Positions 1 through 20,277 of a DNA stretch of 20,277 nucleotides are shown here, one piece after another (the stretch's first letter is position 1; each line of letters opens with the position of its first letter). The stretch comes from a virus, in the UHGV virus genome UHGV-0069616; one strand, written 5' to 3'. A program made the translations under genes and the position numbers. The notes beneath the pieces are model-generated. The model worked only from the letters and a program-made list of their open reading frames with translations. It was not told the DNA's origin and did no database searches.

Positions 1-235
1 TATAATATCAGCCAAACCACTAAAATGTAAATATTACACAAGCTAAGGCGTTGAAAATTGCCTTAGCCCAACCAAATATAACCAAATCTTAACCCAAAAA
101 TCCCAATTTAAAACCTCTAATATTAAAATATCTTACTATCTCCGAAATTATAACCAATACCGTTATTTACTCCCATTTTGACCTGTTCCGCCAAAAACAA
201 CTCGAATTGAAAACACCGCGACTTGTTTTTGAAAA
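1..235. repeat. Left inverted terminal repeat (235 bp), reverse complement of 20043..20277
   Basis: Read directly. The first 235 nt (tataatatcagcc...gacttgtttttgaaaa) are the exact reverse complement of the last 235 nt. Identity stops at 236 versus 20042. It contains hairpin 41..68 (gctaaggc-N12-gccttagc) and three CCCAA motifs. Confidence 0.95.
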
Positions 236-262
236 ATAGTCGGTTCACTAATCTAAAGTATC

Positions 263-302
263 TGCAAACAAAATGAGCGCAGACAATATTCATCATCTGC
301 GC
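263..302 (-). terminator. Rho-independent terminator ending the late operon (minus strand)
   Basis: The GC-rich inverted repeat gcgcaga-N12-tctgcgc (277..302) is followed on the minus strand by UCAUUUUGUUUG (265..276). It lies about 40 nt downstream of the stop of the 802-aa gene. Confidence 0.7.
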
Positions 303-344
303 TATAAAGGTATTAATTATAAATTAGTGAGGCGAGAACAATTT

Positions 345-2741
345 TTAAGGTTGCGGTTTCATATTTTTAAGATGGCCCCATATAAAATTAGCTAAATTTT
401 GTCCCCCAGCTTCACTTTGGTGTATATGGTCGACGTACAGTTCAGGTGTGTAAGGGTTTTGACCTCCCTCTGCACAATAGTCAACAACATCAATTCCCAT
501 AGTTCTACAAACAGCTATAACTGAATCCTCATATTCCCATGCTGTTTTATTATTTAATGGATACTTATAAGTTCTACCATCATATGTTACTTCACCATAA
601 GGTCTTATTAATTGGTCTGTGACAAACAAAATTCTTGCATTAGAATTTTCACATATATATTTTAAAATATTAAAAGTTAGGCCCGATAGCGTATCTTCAT
701 CTGAGGCTAATACTTCTCCTATAGCAGTATTACCCCAATCATTCGCAAAGCCTTCTACTACTACTAACGCCGCTTCAGCTTTTAGATTCGTTTTAATAGA
801 ATTATATATCTGCTTAGCTGTTCCAGCTGGAATACCATAATTTTCAACACTTAGACCACTTAATGAAGCTAGTGGGTTTACATATTTTCCATAAGAAGTT
901 GACGTAATAGAAGTCCCAAAGAATTGAGCCAATTTTCCACTCCAAGGATTATCCATAGTTCCTGAATCTACAATTAATCCAGTCAACTTAAATGAATCTT
1001 CTGTTGTTATTTCATTAAGTTGTTTATATTTTTTGCCCAACGTAACAATTCTTTGATTATCAGGTATTGAAGCTAAGAACGGAATCGAAATATAATATGC
1101 ATTATTGGGAACATAATATGCACCTAATTGAATGTCCGTTGAACTATTAATTGAAAGTATTGGTTTTCTAGATTCATCAAAATATGTAATCTCAATACCC
1201 CTCGTGGAGTTATTAGCACTATTATAAACTCTTCCCGGTAGTACTGGCAATAAGATTGAATCATAAGTAGGAAAGTCTGTTAATTTTCCCGCTAAATATA
1301 TCTTTCCCCTGTTTATCTCAACATTTTGGCTGTATAAATTTTTATATCCTTCATATTCATCCAAAAACATAGCACGATTAGAAATATCTGCAATATATCT
1401 TTTATATAAACCACTAACTCCACATTTTTCAGGAAAATATTTATAAAAATCCTTATAATTAAGATGAACCTTAACATTTAAATCCGTTTTTCCTAATGCT
1501 ATTTTTATTTTTCTTGTGCCATCAGGTATAGTTGCTACTGCTTGTTCACCGCCGCCTAGAATAGTATCGTTATTAGAATAAAACCATATTTTAGGCGTCA
1601 CAGTATAATCTTTACATGTTATAACATCATTAGTATTATATCTAAAATATGCTATCGAATAAGTATTAAAATTTGAATCAGTAACAACATTGCCGTTAAC
1701 AATATTTTTATTTGTTTCAAATTTCGAACCAGGAAGTAAATTATAAATATTAAATCCCGGGTCTATATTGTTGACAGGAATTCTAAAATCTTCATAAGAA
1801 AAGCCCATATCTGATTTCATATTAATTAAGTAAGGGGCTTTTGAATTATAAATCCACGTCCTATATATAGAATCATACCTGTTATCATAGGGAATTCTAT
1901 AAAATCCGTTTATACCCGGCATAAAATTAGGTTTGGTTACAGACGAAGTAATCGTAATATTTCTTAAATATGTTTTATTTTCATCATATAATGGAATTGA
2001 TAATTGATTGCCCGTTTGAGTAGTTTTCCATATCTCAGAAGTAGAAACATAATCGTCAATAGCTACAGGAATAAATCCAGTGGTATTTAATGTATCAGAT
2101 GAAACTACCACACCTCCACTTCCAATATACCCATTTATAATTGTATCAGGGTCGTCAGGGTTAAATAAATTTTTTGTTAATGAATAGCCCGCTAAATTTT
2201 TTTGATTTATGTTTTCAATGTTTATTGGATTTAGATAAGTTCCCCCTAGTGCCCATGTGGTGCCATTCCAATAATACCAGCCATTTGTTTCTTCAACAAC
2301 ATATATTCTGTTTTTATCTGTTCCAGTTGCAGAATTCAAATCGTTTAAGGTTTTAAAAACTCCTGCTGGTGACGGGGTAACAATACTTTCTATTTTTCCA
2401 TCCTGAATATCAAGTCGCTTATTTAAATCATCTTGTATATCTTTTAAAAGTGTATTATTAATTAGATTACCAAGAGTCCCGTTAGACACTAACAGATTAA
2501 TATAAGCTATTGTTTCATTTTCAACCCCTTCATTCAAAAGGTATTTTGTCCACTCTGTATTAACATTTAACTGCTCAACCACTTCGTTAATTTTCTGAGC
2601 CATTTTACCTTGTTCTTTAGCATACGTTAATTCTTCTCCATATACTGCTGGCAAGCTAATTTGCGCCCAATACATTAACTTTTCTACTGCATGTAGTAAA
2701 CCAACGGGTCTTTCAGGTGTTTTTAAATTATAATCAGCCAT
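345..2741 (-). CDS. Tail appendage / fibre-like protein (phi29 gp12 positional equivalent) with a C-terminal SGNH/GDSL-type hydrolase domain
   Basis: Track ORF 345..2753. The true start is probably the internal ATG (MADYNLKTP), preceded by GTGAGGAaaaag, and the GTG at 2753 is unlikely. It is the last gene of the structural block and is the largest protein. The C-terminus carries SGNH blocks FGTSITS, GFANDW (GxND) and DHIH (DxxH). Confidence 0.6.
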   Translation of the reverse strand: MADYNLKTPERPVGLLHAVEKLMYWAQISLPAVYGEELTYAKEQGKMAQKINEVVEQLNVNTEWTKYLLNEGVENETIAYINLLVSNGTLGNLINNTLLKDIQDDLNKRLDIQDGKIESIVTPSPAGVFKTLNDLNSATGTDKNRIYVVEETNGWYYWNGTTWALGGTYLNPINIENINQKNLAGYSLTKNLFNPDDPDTIINGYIGSGGVVVSSDTLNTTGFIPVAIDDYVSTSEIWKTTQTGNQLSIPLYDENKTYLRNITITSSVTKPNFMPGINGFYRIPYDNRYDSIYRTWIYNSKAPYLINMKSDMGFSYEDFRIPVNNIDPGFNIYNLLPGSKFETNKNIVNGNVVTDSNFNTYSIAYFRYNTNDVITCKDYTVTPKIWFYSNNDTILGGGEQAVATIPDGTRKIKIALGKTDLNVKVHLNYKDFYKYFPEKCGVSGLYKRYIADISNRAMFLDEYEGYKNLYSQNVEINRGKIYLAGKLTDFPTYDSILLPVLPGRVYNSANNSTRGIEITYFDESRKPILSINSSTDIQLGAYYVPNNAYYISIPFLASIPDNQRIVTLGKKYKQLNEITTEDSFKLTGLIVDSGTMDNPWSGKLAQFFGTSITSTSYGKYVNPLASLSGLSVENYGIPAGTAKQIYNSIKTNLKAEAALVVVEGFANDWGNTAIGEVLASDEDTLSGLTFNILKYICENSNARILFVTDQLIRPYGEVTYDGRTYKYPLNNKTAWEYEDSVIAVCRTMGIDVVDYCAEGGQNPYTPELYVDHIHQSEAGGQNLANFIWGHLKNMKPQP

Positions 2742-3078
2742 CTTTTTCCTCACTTTCTAACCTTTCGGCGTTTTCTCTCATGCTTTCTTCAATGAAACCT
2801 TGCACTTCGTCAATTGCCTGCGTTCGTTTTTTCCTCCCTTCTTTCTGCAAGCGTTCAATACAATATTGAAGTTCTTCCGCATGAAGTTTTTCTTCTTCCA
2901 TTATATCAGATATTACTTTATAAATCCAGTCATTTTCTGATAATCTTTCTAAATGTCCACGATAAATAAATATCGCTTCTAGTTCACCCGCAAGCTCAAT
3001 TTCTAGTGCTTGAAGCAACTCCGTTCGGTTGTTTAAGTCTTTTAAATCTCCCGTATAAGGGTTTGCAAAAATAGCCAT
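2734..3078 (-). CDS. Hypothetical protein (114 aa), acidic and helical, possibly an assembly chaperone for the appendage
   Basis: Track ORF. It overlaps both neighbouring genes, and its start ATG follows the RBS-like sequence cccgtataagggtttgcaaaaATG. No recognisable domain. Confidence 0.5.
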   Translation of the reverse strand: MAIFANPYTGDLKDLNNRTELLQALEIELAGELEAIFIYRGHLERLSENDWIYKVISDIMEEEKLHAEELQYCIERLQKEGRKKRTQAIDEVQGFIEESMRENAERLESEEKDG

Positions 3079-3264
3079 TTATTTTACCTTTCTTTCACAT
3101 AAAATACTTTCGCCAATATCACAAGCTTTTGCATAGTATATATTATATTCAGGGTGAGCCTTTAGATAAAGCTGTTTTGCTTTATCTAAAGTAGGTGCCT
3201 GCACTACTGCGTGAATTTTCAAATTTTTCGATGGACTTTTTCCCACAATGTCACAAAATATCAT
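3079..3264 (-). CDS. Hypothetical small protein (about 61 aa from the internal start MIFCDIV)
   Basis: Track ORF 3079..3297. The internal ATG is preceded by GAAGGGAGattgta, and its start overlaps the upstream stop as TAATGA. No homology recognised. Confidence 0.45.
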   Translation of the reverse strand: MIFCDIVGKSPSKNLKIHAVVQAPTLDKAKQLYLKAHPEYNIYYAKACDIGESILCERKVK

Positions 3265-19665: not shown

Positions 19666-19680
19666 TTTGGTTCCTCCTAT

Positions 19681-19845
19681 TTATAATAATTTTCCTCTTT
19701 CTAACATTAAATTGTAACCTTTTAAATAGCCGTCCGTATAAGGACATTCTTCCAATTTTTTAATTAAATTTTCTACAAACAAACTTCCAAATTGTAAAAC
19801 ATCTATTGAGGCGTCCTGTAATCCCTTTAAATATTCTTCGTTCAT
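19681..19845 (-). CDS. Hypothetical small early protein (54 aa), first gene after the right-end promoter
   Basis: Not in the track. Translation: MNEEYLKGLQDASIDVLQFGSLFVENLIKKLEECPYTDGYLKGYNLMLERGKLL. RBS GAGGAcaacaaa. Confidence 0.45.
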   Translation of the reverse strand: MNEEYLKGLQDASIDVLQFGSLFVENLIKKLEECPYTDGYLKGYNLMLERGKLL

Positions 19846-19880
19846 TTTGTTGTCCTCGTCTTTCTTTATTTTATGTCTGT

Positions 19881-19909
19881 ATTATATCACGTAAAAGAAA
19901 GGTTGTCAA
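19881..19909 (-). promoter_or_regulatory. Consensus sigma-A early promoter (minus strand): TTGACA, 17-nt spacer, TGaTATAAT
   Basis: Read directly. The -35 is TTGACA (19904..19909), the spacer is 17 nt, the extended -10 is TGa and the -10 is TATAAT (19881..19886). Predicted TSS near 19874, about 30 nt upstream of the first ATG. Confidence 0.8.
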
Positions 19910-20042
19910 TAGTTTTTAAGCATTTTCTTCGGTTATTTTAATTATTAAGATTATGCTTGTGTTAATTATTTAACAATCATAGTGTAAGTGTTTTTGTTAC
20001 AGATGTGACTGGTGTCCCGCTTCACCTCACCAAGGCGTGTTA

Positions 20043-20277
20043 TTTTCAAAAACAAGTCGCGGTGTTTTCAATTCGAGTTGTTTTTGGCGGAACAGGTCAA
20101 AATGGGAGTAAATAACGGTATTGGTTATAATTTCGGAGATAGTAAGATATTTTAATATTAGAGGTTTTAAATTGGGATTTTTGGGTTAAGATTTGGTTAT
20201 ATTTGGTTGGGCTAAGGCAATTTTCAACGCCTTAGCTTGTGTAATATTTACATTTTAGTGGTTTGGCTGATATTATA
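20043..20277. repeat. Right inverted terminal repeat (235 bp)
   Basis: Exact reverse complement of 1..235. Confidence 0.95.

Follow-up and report, generated by a model that had tools for sequence, protein, structure and literature searches.

An uncultivated phi29-like phage genome with long inverted terminal repeats, a frame-broken DNA polymerase gene and a candidate hammerhead ribozyme

In this work, we analyzed a 20,277-nt stretch of viral DNA, UHGV virus genome UHGV-0069616 (the whole of which is hereafter called the window), that an earlier note, made from the letters alone, had described as a complete phi29-like genome. The comparisons presented below identify it as the near-complete linear genome of an uncultivated phi29-like podophage, with inverted terminal repeats (ITRs) of at least 235 bp and a family-B DNA polymerase (DNAP) primed by a terminal protein (TP). 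Its genes would be transcribed in one direction, its early transcript would be cut by a hammerhead ribozyme and its DNAP would be produced through a +1 frameshift; taken as a whole, we hold this account to be quite probable. Two of these features, the frame break in the polymerase gene and the hammerhead ribozyme, go beyond what the earlier note had described. Genes were identified by Pfam and PHROGs profile searches of the open reading frames (ORFs) of the window, and the comparisons within the clade cover 20 contigs from 20 sources and different assemblers, most of them of 19.5-23 kb (cited by L numbers where they have to be told apart).

A frame break in the DNA polymerase gene

A protein-primed DNAP had been listed among the genes of the window. 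The enzyme is indeed encoded, but not as one ORF, since its exonuclease and polymerase parts lie in different frames:

14529..15266, minus strand: DNAP frame 0, carrying the exonuclease domain as far as the YKGGF motif (Pfam DNA_pol_B_2 profile positions 5-222)
13493..14563, minus strand: DNAP frame +1, palm (motif A, DVNSLYP), TPR1, fingers, TPR2 and thumb (Pfam DNA_pol_B_2 profile positions 231-460)
14562..14570, minus strand: predicted +1 frameshift site CGA UUU UCG, with the slippery UUU_U at 14567-14564 and translation resuming at CGC 14563-14561

The polymerase-part ORF (13493-14557) is offset by +1 from the exonuclease-part ORF (14529-15266). CGA-TTT-T is invariant at the same codon, with the same +1 offset, in 20 of the 20 clade contigs, where it is followed by seven different downstream contexts. 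The 0-frame codon after UUU is UCG in 18 of them and UAA in the other two, UCG being the rarest serine codon (18 of 5103 codons, 0.35%) and CGA-TTT-TCG occurring only once in the genome. A 0-frame stop lies 1-3 codons past UUU in 19 of the 20 contigs; the exception is the window, where unslipped reading continues through 10 further codons (SQYGSRGRNCS) before the stop, and the unshifted product measures 245 aa in the window and 234-236 aa in its relatives.

The pattern of codon variation changes frame at the same point. Before the site, a proline codon varies synonymously in frame 0 (CCT/CCC/CCA), and upstream the +1 frame stays open over no more than 4 codons. After the site, codons change synonymously or conservatively in frame +1 (CGC/CGT, AAT/AAC, AAG/AAA and GTC/GTA/GTT, together with Arg/Lys exchanges via CGY/AAA); read in frame 0, the same changes make no sense. 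Taken together, these patterns indicate that selection switches frame exactly at the CGA-UUU-U site. Furthermore, the fused product of 590 aa is colinear with the intact polymerases of related phages: its residues 4-589 align with residues 10-575 of phi29 DNAP (E 2e-155), both TPR regions being spanned, and the junction aligns without a gap (YKGGFTYLSPRFRNMEVGEGIVLDVNSLYP in the fused protein versus YRGGFTWLNDRFKEKEIGEGMVFDVNSLYP in phi29 DNAP). The predicted trans-frame peptide reads ...YLSPRF-RNMEVGEGIVLDVNSLYPSVMYYDK, with YLSPRFRNMEVGEGIVLDVNSLYPSVMYYDK as the junction peptide. In a database of 5.8 billion proteins, the closest DNAP clusters (n=5, 99-74% identity) consist only of ORFs for the C-terminal part, 329-354 aa long, and the matches at or below 60% identity are all full length, with 551-611 aa.

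In the +1 frameshifts of prfB and Ty1, a slippery P-site codon stands beside a hungry or stop A-site codon; in Escherichia coli prfB, which encodes RF2, the P-site codon slips on CUU UGA C while the A site is empty. The site described here resembles the prfB type in that the P-site codon can re-pair fully after a +1 slip (UUU_U), the A-site codon is a stop or a rare codon, the site has been conserved and a 0-frame stop follows at once. It differs from it in the lack of a Shine-Dalgarno-like stimulator 3 nt upstream, in that the gene is that of a viral protein-primed DNAP, and in that the unshifted product is a whole folded exonuclease domain and not a short peptide.

We propose that DNAP is made only through this conserved +1 ribosomal frameshift. 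With tRNA-Phe on the P-site UUU and the rare UCG or the stop UAA in the A site, the ribosome would slip +1 onto the overlapping UUU and go on to produce the 590-aa DNAP. Most ribosomes would not slip and would terminate, yielding an exonuclease-domain protein of ~235 aa, and a minority would yield full DNAP. The frameshift might thereby set a low, fixed dose of DNAP relative to TP, which is consumed stoichiometrically and is encoded just upstream in the same operon. Both the ribosomal nature of the slippage and its efficiency are what we infer from the sequence comparisons. Transcriptional slippage on the T4 run was considered as well and rejected, the run being too short.

Several observations weigh against the frameshift. 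There are 27 other in-frame UUU_U sites in the genome, so that the slippery tetranucleotide alone would be insufficient, and inspection across lineages for a conserved cis-acting stimulator, either a Shine-Dalgarno-like sequence upstream or a hairpin downstream, found none. The Shine-Dalgarno-like GGAGG of the window lies 22 nt upstream of the shift site, too far by the precedent of prfB; a downstream AAGGAAUU/AAUUCCUU hairpin was rejected as a stimulator because it is not kept in L009 or L010. With no cis stimulator and so many other UUU_U sites, the efficiency of the frameshift is probably modest. Besides, the window and the L004 group carry an ATG in the +1 frame right after the site (TAATATG), 1-2 nt past the position of the 0-frame stop, which is a classic arrangement for translational coupling, and termination-reinitiation giving two polypeptides would be possible there.

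This last observation, together with the fact that gene callers mark two ORFs in every contig, would suit a true two-subunit enzyme, with halves translated separately, by termination-reinitiation or by independent initiation, and joined non-covalently. We regard it as unlikely. Half of the contigs (L001, L009, L010, L013, L018, L022, L024, L025, L027 and L031) have AAG, AAA or AGG in place of that ATG, and upstream of motif A their +1 frame offers no start codon (ATG, GTG or TTG); an ATG first appears past DVNSLYP, with loss of the catalytic Asp, so that separate initiation cannot yield an active enzyme in them. There is no ribosome binding site ahead of the shift site, the break falls inside the palm, between YxGG and motif A, and not at a domain boundary, and two subunits would leave the invariant CGA-UUU-U, with its rare or stop A-site codon, unexplained. 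Highly improbable, in our view, is an origin of the frame break in faulty sequencing or assembly, or else in an inactivating mutation of a helper-dependent defective genome. One extra base would suffice to explain a single sequence, and metagenome assemblies do contain indel errors; against this, the same +1 offset at the same codon recurs in the 20 contigs from 20 sources and different assemblers, in lineages down to 74% DNAP amino acid identity, apart from the break each half is intact and evolves under purifying selection, and the site is no long homopolymer.

Full-text literature searches and a 2024 review of phi29-like phages (PMC11476376) gave no report of a programmed frameshift in a protein-primed DNAP gene, and the paper found on frameshifts in Salasmaviridae concerns host resistance mutations. 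If real, the frameshift would be a simple natural device for setting the dose of DNAP against that of TP in a one-direction operon, and would yield, in nature, the exonuclease part alone from an enzyme family much used in biotechnology. For annotation, the split of the DNAP into two "genes" by gene callers in 20 of the 20 contigs means that automated pipelines will mis-annotate the clade or flag its members as defective.

A candidate hammerhead ribozyme and the RNA downstream of its cut

The second feature precedes the replication genes on the coding strand, and comprises a ribozyme-like motif, the structured RNA that follows it and a degenerate sister copy further upstream:

17475..17543, minus strand: type-I hammerhead ribozyme, predicted cut between 17479 and 17478
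17222..17478, minus strand: conserved structured RNA (~257 nt in the window) starting at the ribozyme cut, with modules P1 17438-17478, P2 17342-17421 and P3 17222-17314
19292..19401, minus strand: probably decayed second hammerhead copy, with core CUAAAGA (G5 -> A), a mismatch in stem I and a ~55-nt insertion in the stem III loop

The predicted hammerhead has a stem I of CGCC/GGCG, the core CUGAUGA...GAA, a stem II of GUCUU/AAGAC with loop UGAAAAUU, and a 12-bp stem III closed by A15.1-U16.1 and followed by C17. It was found in 18 of the 18 clade contigs that cover the region, and each copy starts directly past the stop codon of a small early ORF. Among nine intact copies, the core (C3 U4 G5 A6 N7 G8 A9, G12 A13 A14 and A15.1-U16.1) is invariant save for N7, and H17 is C; the core is likewise kept in all 11 aligned distinct copies. 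In these 11 copies, 97.8% of the cells are paired, versus 27-51% with slid partners, and seven pairs show compensatory double changes (three in stem I, two in stem II and two in stem III), a covariation score reached by none of 500 shuffles. A second intact copy lies upstream in five contigs (L009, L010, L027, L029 and L031); its counterpart in the window has probably decayed, as the altered core listed above suggests. In the stem III of the window, a tandem duplication (UGUUUCACG GUGUUUCACG UGAAACA), common to L029, L030 and L031, permits two registers.

The first Rfam match was a weak one to Hammerhead_3 at 17505-17568 on the minus strand. The element scores 27.7 bits with the RAGATH-1-hammerhead model (gathering threshold 56.3), in the type-I register, and 27.4 bits with Hammerhead_3 (gathering threshold 48.5), in the wrong register; its score is under the gathering threshold of every Rfam hammerhead model, and its stem I has only 4-6 bp. 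These points weigh against the ribozyme. The type-III register proposed by Rfam was rejected, as it puts a G at the cleavage site and leaves 3-bp stems, and the type-I register fits all copies. Like bacterial and phage hammerheads, including the RAGATH-1 variant (RF03152), the element has the full core CUGANGA / GAA / A15.1-U16.1 / C17 and a three-helix junction with stems II and III capped and stem I open. Unlike them, the clade copy has a conserved 8-nt loop II (UGAAAAUU) and scores below threshold in Rfam, is always found directly after the 3' end of an ORF in the early operon of a phage, and has a stem I 3' strand that pairs alternatively with a downstream CGCC, giving a 5' hairpin on the released RNA. 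From sequence comparison, the element is predicted to self-cleave. The hammerhead core was not found in CH17P1, LE1-1, Cp-1, L002 or L003, and literature searches gave no report of a hammerhead in phi29-like phages.

The RNA downstream spans from the ribozyme cut to just before the ribosome binding site of the p6-like gene; its length would be about 150-290 nt according to lineage. Independent minimum free energy folds of five lineages gave the same three modules, with helix sequences that differ by lineage. P1 is formed by GGCGUA...UGCGCC, in L009 by GCCGUA...UACGGC; P2 is a long-range helix of 8-9 bp, of lineage-specific sequence, that encloses the invariant GAAAGAAGGUGAAnAACUCCUUG; and P3 has a closing helix of 8-12 bp that is different in each lineage. 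RNAalifold on MAFFT alignments, which were poor, retrieved only part of P1 and fragments of the remainder, with no structure for domain 2, and single-sequence folds were used instead. One strand, the 3' half of ribozyme stem I, also makes up the 5' half of P1; in L009, the two strands that pair with it have changed along with it.

We rejected the reading of a small ORF that would begin at the invariant GAAGGUGA...UUG, since its peptide is not conserved. Promoter-like hexamers were observed within P2 (17342-17421), namely TTGTCT-18-TATAAT in the window and a perfect TTGTAT-17-TATAAT at ~3990-4040 of L010, beside the invariant GAAAGAAGGTGAAnAACTCCTTG; this stretch may act alternatively as an internal promoter or as structured RNA.

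As for function, the hammerhead would cut the early transcript, and the downstream RNA, beginning with GGCG, would re-pair with the downstream CGCC into a 5'-terminal hairpin on the leader. The refolding would leave a hairpin-capped 5'-OH end on the p6-p5-p4-TP-DNAP mRNA. The most likely role of the cleavage would be to uncouple the replication mRNA from the variable early block and probably to stabilize it. If so, a covarying hammerhead in the early operon of a DNA phage, accompanied in the same genome by a sister copy that has probably decayed and could act as its negative control, would offer a tractable case for the roles of phage ribozymes.

A different function may be considered for the same RNA. 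A packaging RNA (pRNA) was not detected by Rfam in the whole window, nor in the 440-nt gap at E values up to 10, although a motor of the phi29 gp16/gp10 type needs one, which is a further point against our account of the genome. The structured RNA could be the packaging (prohead) RNA analogue of the clade, with its 5' end matured by the ribozyme within a co-directional operon. We consider this doubtful; no three-way junction or loop-loop complementarity is evident in 17222-17478. All pRNAs known so far come from Bacillus phages (PMC11476376), so that, if the assignment were true, pRNA-dependent packaging would extend beyond them and the ribozyme would gain a defined job. A companion conjecture is that the unshifted 235-aa exonuclease-domain protein could be a functional stand-alone proofreading or regulatory factor and not a by-product.

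Genome ends, relatives and the form of the genome

The ends of the window are formed by an inverted repeat:

1..235, no strand: left ITR (late-gene end), 100% reverse complement of 20043-20277
20043..20277, no strand: right ITR (early-gene end), reverse complement of 1-235

The two copies, of 235 nt, are 100% complementary and flush with the window edges, just as the earlier note had it, and a perfect repeat of this length excludes chance as its origin. The left ITR holds two palindromes able to form hairpins, and a region homologous to it is present in L001, L013 and L022 at 73-88% identity. In the relatives, the contigs break at the early end 14-45 nt into the inner edge of the right ITR, and many clade contigs break, at either end, 14-45 nt inside the inner edge of an ITR or just before it, which is to be expected of a two-copy repeat. 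Besides, contig k141_22255 (20,962 bp, rebuilt from L010 and L017) has perfect inverted ends of 141 nt, a length equal to the k of the assembler, which fits a longer ITR cut at a branch of the graph. A two-copy inverted repeat as a real, clade-wide feature is therefore supported independently of the window.

The window as a complete genome is, in contrast, only probable, and of the earlier claim of completeness what stands is a near-complete genome and not its exact termini. An ITR flush with the edges is not proof of completeness, since both assembled ends come from one repeat and are symmetric by construction. L001 (19241-19295, 55 nt) and L013 (19034-19085, 51 nt) extend past the base that matches the first base of the window; the extra 51-55 nt are common to both independent assemblies and match no other sequence compared. 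The first letters of the window are TATAATA, versus AAAG in both phi29 and Cp-1. These observations, which stand against taking the window edges as the true termini, hint that the window may be short of ~55 terminal nt at each end. Read from its end, the extension in L001 and L013 starts with AGATAGTATAC... and has AAAATTCCCCC ~27 nt in; the Cp-1 end has AAAAATTCCCCC ~29 nt in.

A further observation on this side is L022 (logan SRR13668462_1602, 21,704 bp), which is permuted and joins the late ITR to an internal early position. In its stretch 5400-6050, the fibre gene is followed by one full ITR copy, the match of which ends at the same point as the window terminus, then by 24 unique nt and by the early region from ~300-600 nt inside; the join omits the conserved early promoter and the first ORF. 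L022, the sole observation in favor of end-joining, looks like a chimeric join or a deletion variant and may alternatively derive from a replication intermediate. Inspection of both ends of L001 showed it to be truncated at its early end, and the clade contigs anchored at the connector gene or at the gene of the single-stranded DNA-binding protein (SSB) all break at or within the ITR. The terminal 27-mer of the window had no exact match in an IMG/VR pattern scan.

It is on L022 that a circular, permuted or concatemeric genome would have to rest, with a single "ITR" segment between the fibre and early genes and the ITRs as an artefact of assembly; the GenBank record of LE1-1 is labelled circular, and the symmetry of an assembled ITR at the edges is automatic. 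Nevertheless, a single-copy segment cannot give inverted copies at both ends in independent assemblies (235 nt in the window, 141 nt in k141_22255), many contigs break exactly at the inner edge of the ITR, as they would for a two-copy repeat, the join in L022 resembles a chimera or deletion variant in skipping the early promoter and first ORF, and TP together with a protein-primed family-B polymerase implies protein-primed linear replication. We find the circular form decidedly unlikely. Still further from probable is a prophage or a bacterial linear plasmid in place of a virulent phage. Some protein-primed elements are plasmid-like, such as Enterococcus pBE32_2 and EF62phi (PMC11476376), but profile searches of the window proteins found no integrase, partition or lysogeny genes, the virion and lysis module is full, and none of the 20 contigs carries flanking host DNA. 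A capsid scan of 185,579 species-representative genomes found no relative and gave no host or prophage clue; the lack of a relative there and of lysogeny genes makes a prophage very unlikely. The linear, protein-primed genome is thus the form we retain. Its TP would be covalently linked to the 5' ends, and its host is probably a low-GC Gram-positive gut anaerobe.

The window belongs to a discrete, sharply bounded clade of ~20-23 kb genomes that turns up in many metagenomes. Clusters of the major capsid protein (MCP) in public assemblies match that of the window at 97, 91, 86 and 77% identity, followed by a gap down to 46% or less, where the matches are abundant ~15-17 kb gut phi29-like phages. 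Among 50,697 GenBank phage records, megablast found no match to the window, and the best identities in GenBank are 58% for DNAP (Hungatella phage CH17P1) and 43% for MCP (a human-faecal contig); no GenBank phage belongs to the clade, which has no deposited or cultured representative. The SSB of the window was found as an identical protein in 75 index blocks of public assemblies, so that the clade is common. One-strand gene order is identical in all relatives, which differ mainly in the small early genes. A variable early region accounts for the 20-23 kb spread in size; early genes without a counterpart in the window include that of a Lar_restr_allev (restriction alleviation) protein and, between DNAP and ATPase, that of a DUF4406 protein (L004 4238-4537 and 9270-9587, with equivalents in L005, L007, L009 and L022-L028).

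With phi29, the window shares homologous p6, p5, p4, TP, DNAP, gp16 ATPase, MCP, knob, connector and collar proteins, a similar genome size and terminal inverted repeats (identities of 46% for DNAP, 37% for ATPase, 34% for MCP and 35% for connector). The two differ in that in phi29 the ITR is 6 bp long, early and late genes are transcribed divergently, ATPase and lysis genes follow the tail genes, gp13 is one gene, the DNAP ORF is uninterrupted and Rfam detects a pRNA, whereas in the window the ITR measures at least 235 bp, a single strand is coding, the DNAP gene carries the proposed frameshift, one or more candidate hammerheads are present and no pRNA is detectable. The parallel that had been drawn with the long ITRs of Cp-1-type phages holds for length (235 versus 236 bp) but not for homology. 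Cp-1 (Cepunavirus) also has nearly all genes on one strand, in the order early genes, TP, DNAP and then late genes; it differs in three small right-end ORFs on the other strand, in ATPase and lysis genes that come last and in an intact DNAP. Its proteins are more distant from those of the window than are those of phi29 (DNAP 34%, MCP 28%), tblastn at E 1e-3 or better found no match in it for the TP, p4, SSB or p6 of the window, and the ITRs of the two share no sequence similarity, only chance matches of 7-20 nt. On these comparisons, the Cp-1 parallel is one of analogy only.

The closest sequenced relatives are the cultured gut and sewage phages CH17P1, Clostridium phages CS229P1-3 and LE1-1, together with uncultivated human-faecal relatives of ~15-17 kb. 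Unlike the clade, these phages have genomes 4-7 kb smaller and DNAPs in single ORFs of 551-611 aa. CH17P1 resembles the window in DNAP (58%), TP (37%), p4 (39%) and an ATPase gene directly after that of DNAP, and differs from it in divergent transcription and a 55-nt ITR. In Eggerthella phage LE1-1 (DNAP 44%, MCP 34%, TP 30%), the 23 genes all share a strand; by pairwise identities this phage, assigned to Guelinviridae in its record, is no closer to the window than phi29 and is more distant than the unclassified CH17P1 (58%). An ITR of 107 nt was found in the IMG/VR contig L002. Hence, each architectural element has a precedent in Cp-1, LE1-1 or CH17P1, and it is their combination that is particular to the clade. 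The view of the window as a distinct lineage is upheld by the missing megablast match, the DNAP and MCP identities and the gap around the clade; the one-strand layout and the placement of the ATPase, on which that view had leaned, do not serve as sole markers, given LE1-1, Cp-1 and CH17P1.

Gene order and transcription signals

The window has the gene set that the earlier note had taken as the mark of a protein-primed phi29-type genome, all of it on the minus strand, and the database searches it had proposed as a check found both TP and DNAP homologous to the phi29 proteins. The genes and gene groups other than DNAP are, in coding-strand order:

19681-19845, 19402-19665, 18898-19269, 18591-18980, 18306-18572, 17823-18302 (coiled coil) and 17545-17694, minus strand: early accessory ORFs with ribosome binding sites
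16826..17104, minus strand: p6-type double-stranded DNA-binding protein (phrog_6370, E 1e-12; 24% identity to phi29 p6)
16314..16802, minus strand: phi29-type SSB, p5 (Pfam Phi29_Phage_SSB, 30 bits)
15977..16381, minus strand: p4-type transcription regulator (Pfam Phi-29_GP4, 58 bits)
15270..16037, minus strand: terminal protein, directly upstream of DNAP (phrog_6358 "DNA terminal protein", E 1e-13)
11803..12840, minus strand: gp16-type DNA packaging ATPase (Pfam Podovirus_Gp16, 260 bits; 37% identity to phi29 gp16)
9806..10966, minus strand: lysis cassette, with membrane protein 10676-10966, holin 10393-10659 and endolysin 9806-10396 (PG_binding_1 and Peptidase_M15_3)
9348..9782, minus strand: putative scaffolding protein, acidic
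8015..9370, minus strand: major capsid protein with a C-terminal Big_2 domain (Pfam Phi29_MCP, 309 bits)
6034..7845, minus strand: tail knob gp9 (Pfam phi29_gp9_C and Caud_tail_N)
4977..6034, minus strand: split gp13 equivalent, with tail lysozyme 5516-6034 and M23 peptidase 4977-5516
3264..4875, minus strand: connector gp10 (3898-4875; Pfam Phage_connector, 166 bits) and lower collar gp11 (3264-3944); phrog_3225/5472
345..2753, minus strand: tail fibre/appendage protein, 802 aa (PHROG matches of unknown function; start probably ATG 2741)

The order on the coding strand is early ORFs, p6, p5, p4, TP, DNAP, ATPase, lysis genes, scaffold, MCP, knob, lysozyme, M23 peptidase, connector, collar and fibre. 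This bears out the rearrangement relative to phi29 that had been noticed earlier, with ATPase and lysis genes ahead of the head genes and gp13-like genes ahead of the connector. Minus-strand ORFs cover 89% of the window and include all long ORFs and all those with family support; the GC and AT skews keep a single sign along the whole window. On the plus strand there are 35 ORFs of at least 50 aa, 28 of them wholly within minus-strand ORFs and seven overlapping these, with an intergenic reach of at most 101 nt, and none of the 35 had family support in Pfam or PHROGs. An Rfam search of the window found no tRNA.

Matches to Phi29_MCP, the gp10 connector, the gp9 knob and the gp16 ATPase are all far above the Pfam cutoffs. 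TP scores 23.8 bits with Pfam Phi-29_GP3, just below the cutoff of 25, and the top PDB match of a profile of the clade TPs is phi29 TP (2ex3_B, E 0.002). The scaffolding assignment of 9348..9782, which has no family match, rests on its composition and on a position directly upstream of MCP, as for phi29 gp7.

Transcription signals also lie on the minus strand, with one palindromic element to which no strand is assigned:

19881..19909, minus strand: putative early promoter TTGACA-17-TATAAT with extended -10 TG, 12/12 consensus, in the gap just inside the ITR
17929..17957, minus strand: second promoter-like site TTGACA-17-TACAAT with TG, 11/12 match
13412..13440, minus strand: putative post-polymerase promoter TTGACA-17-TATAAT with TG, 12/12 match, in a 221-nt gap at the start of the packaging/lysis/structural unit
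17132..17170, no strand: palindromic element, core CAAAATC-N3-GATTTTG at 17142-17158, upstream of the p6-like gene
7863..7893, minus strand: terminator-like hairpin and U-run after the MCP gene, a putative terminator

Consensus promoters recur in the clade at three syntenic places, and almost none are antisense: the early promoter has the same syntenic position in most relatives, the site at 17929..17957 corresponds to a consensus promoter in L004, L026, L027, L029 and L031, and the post-polymerase promoter to one ~1.1 kb past the shift site in 10 relatives. Transcription would thus apparently proceed in one direction from three sigma-A-type promoters in series, serving first the early accessory genes, then replication and then the packaging, lysis and structural genes.

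The palindrome, of ~40 nt (GATTGAC-CAAAATC-N3-GATTTTG-..GTCAATC), occurs in intergenic gaps at the starts of gene modules. Its copies in the window are at 4927-4979 (upstream of the connector gene), 17132-17170 (upstream of the p6-like gene) and 7959-8011, the one ahead of the knob gene being degenerate (TCAAAAT-N5-ATTTTGA). Six relatives have the palindrome at a distance of exactly 27 nt before the post-DNAP promoter (L004 9073, L022 13421, L024 8871, L026 8969, L027 8709 and L031 7304). Its role could be that of an operator, to which the p4 homologue may bind, or else it could be a small mobile hairpin. At L009 4165, a copy of the palindromic element is located within an 85-nt insertion in the hammerhead stem II loop.

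Some gene boundaries are likely to differ from the ORFs as listed. The MCP ORF has 451 aa and its start is probably ~10 codons later, since the MCPs called in relatives have 439-444 aa and the matches extend over 96-97% of the query length. Internal ATGs are also the likely starts of ATPase, p4, collar and fibre, the true start of p4 being probably 16309, with 110 aa in the gene calls of relatives. An exact look-up of the 802-aa fibre ORF returned no record, probably because its listed GTG start differs from the called start; fibre homologues in L013, L022 and L032 carry an SGNH/GDSL esterase domain (Lipase_GDSL). The two ORFs of the gp13 equivalent, matching Phage_lysozyme2 and Peptidase_M23, overlap by ATGA and are located before the connector and not after the appendage gene. 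Within the early block (17545..19845), the content of which differs among relatives, PHROG matches were obtained for 19402-19665 and 17545-17694, the former being phrog_4264, with the Pfam label DUF8033 taken from the gene tables of relatives. Finally, a 114-aa protein encoded between collar and fibre (2734-3078, minus strand) gives a weak Pfam match to COQ7, a ferritin-like di-iron family (24.7 bits, cutoff 23.5), and is kept in all relatives.

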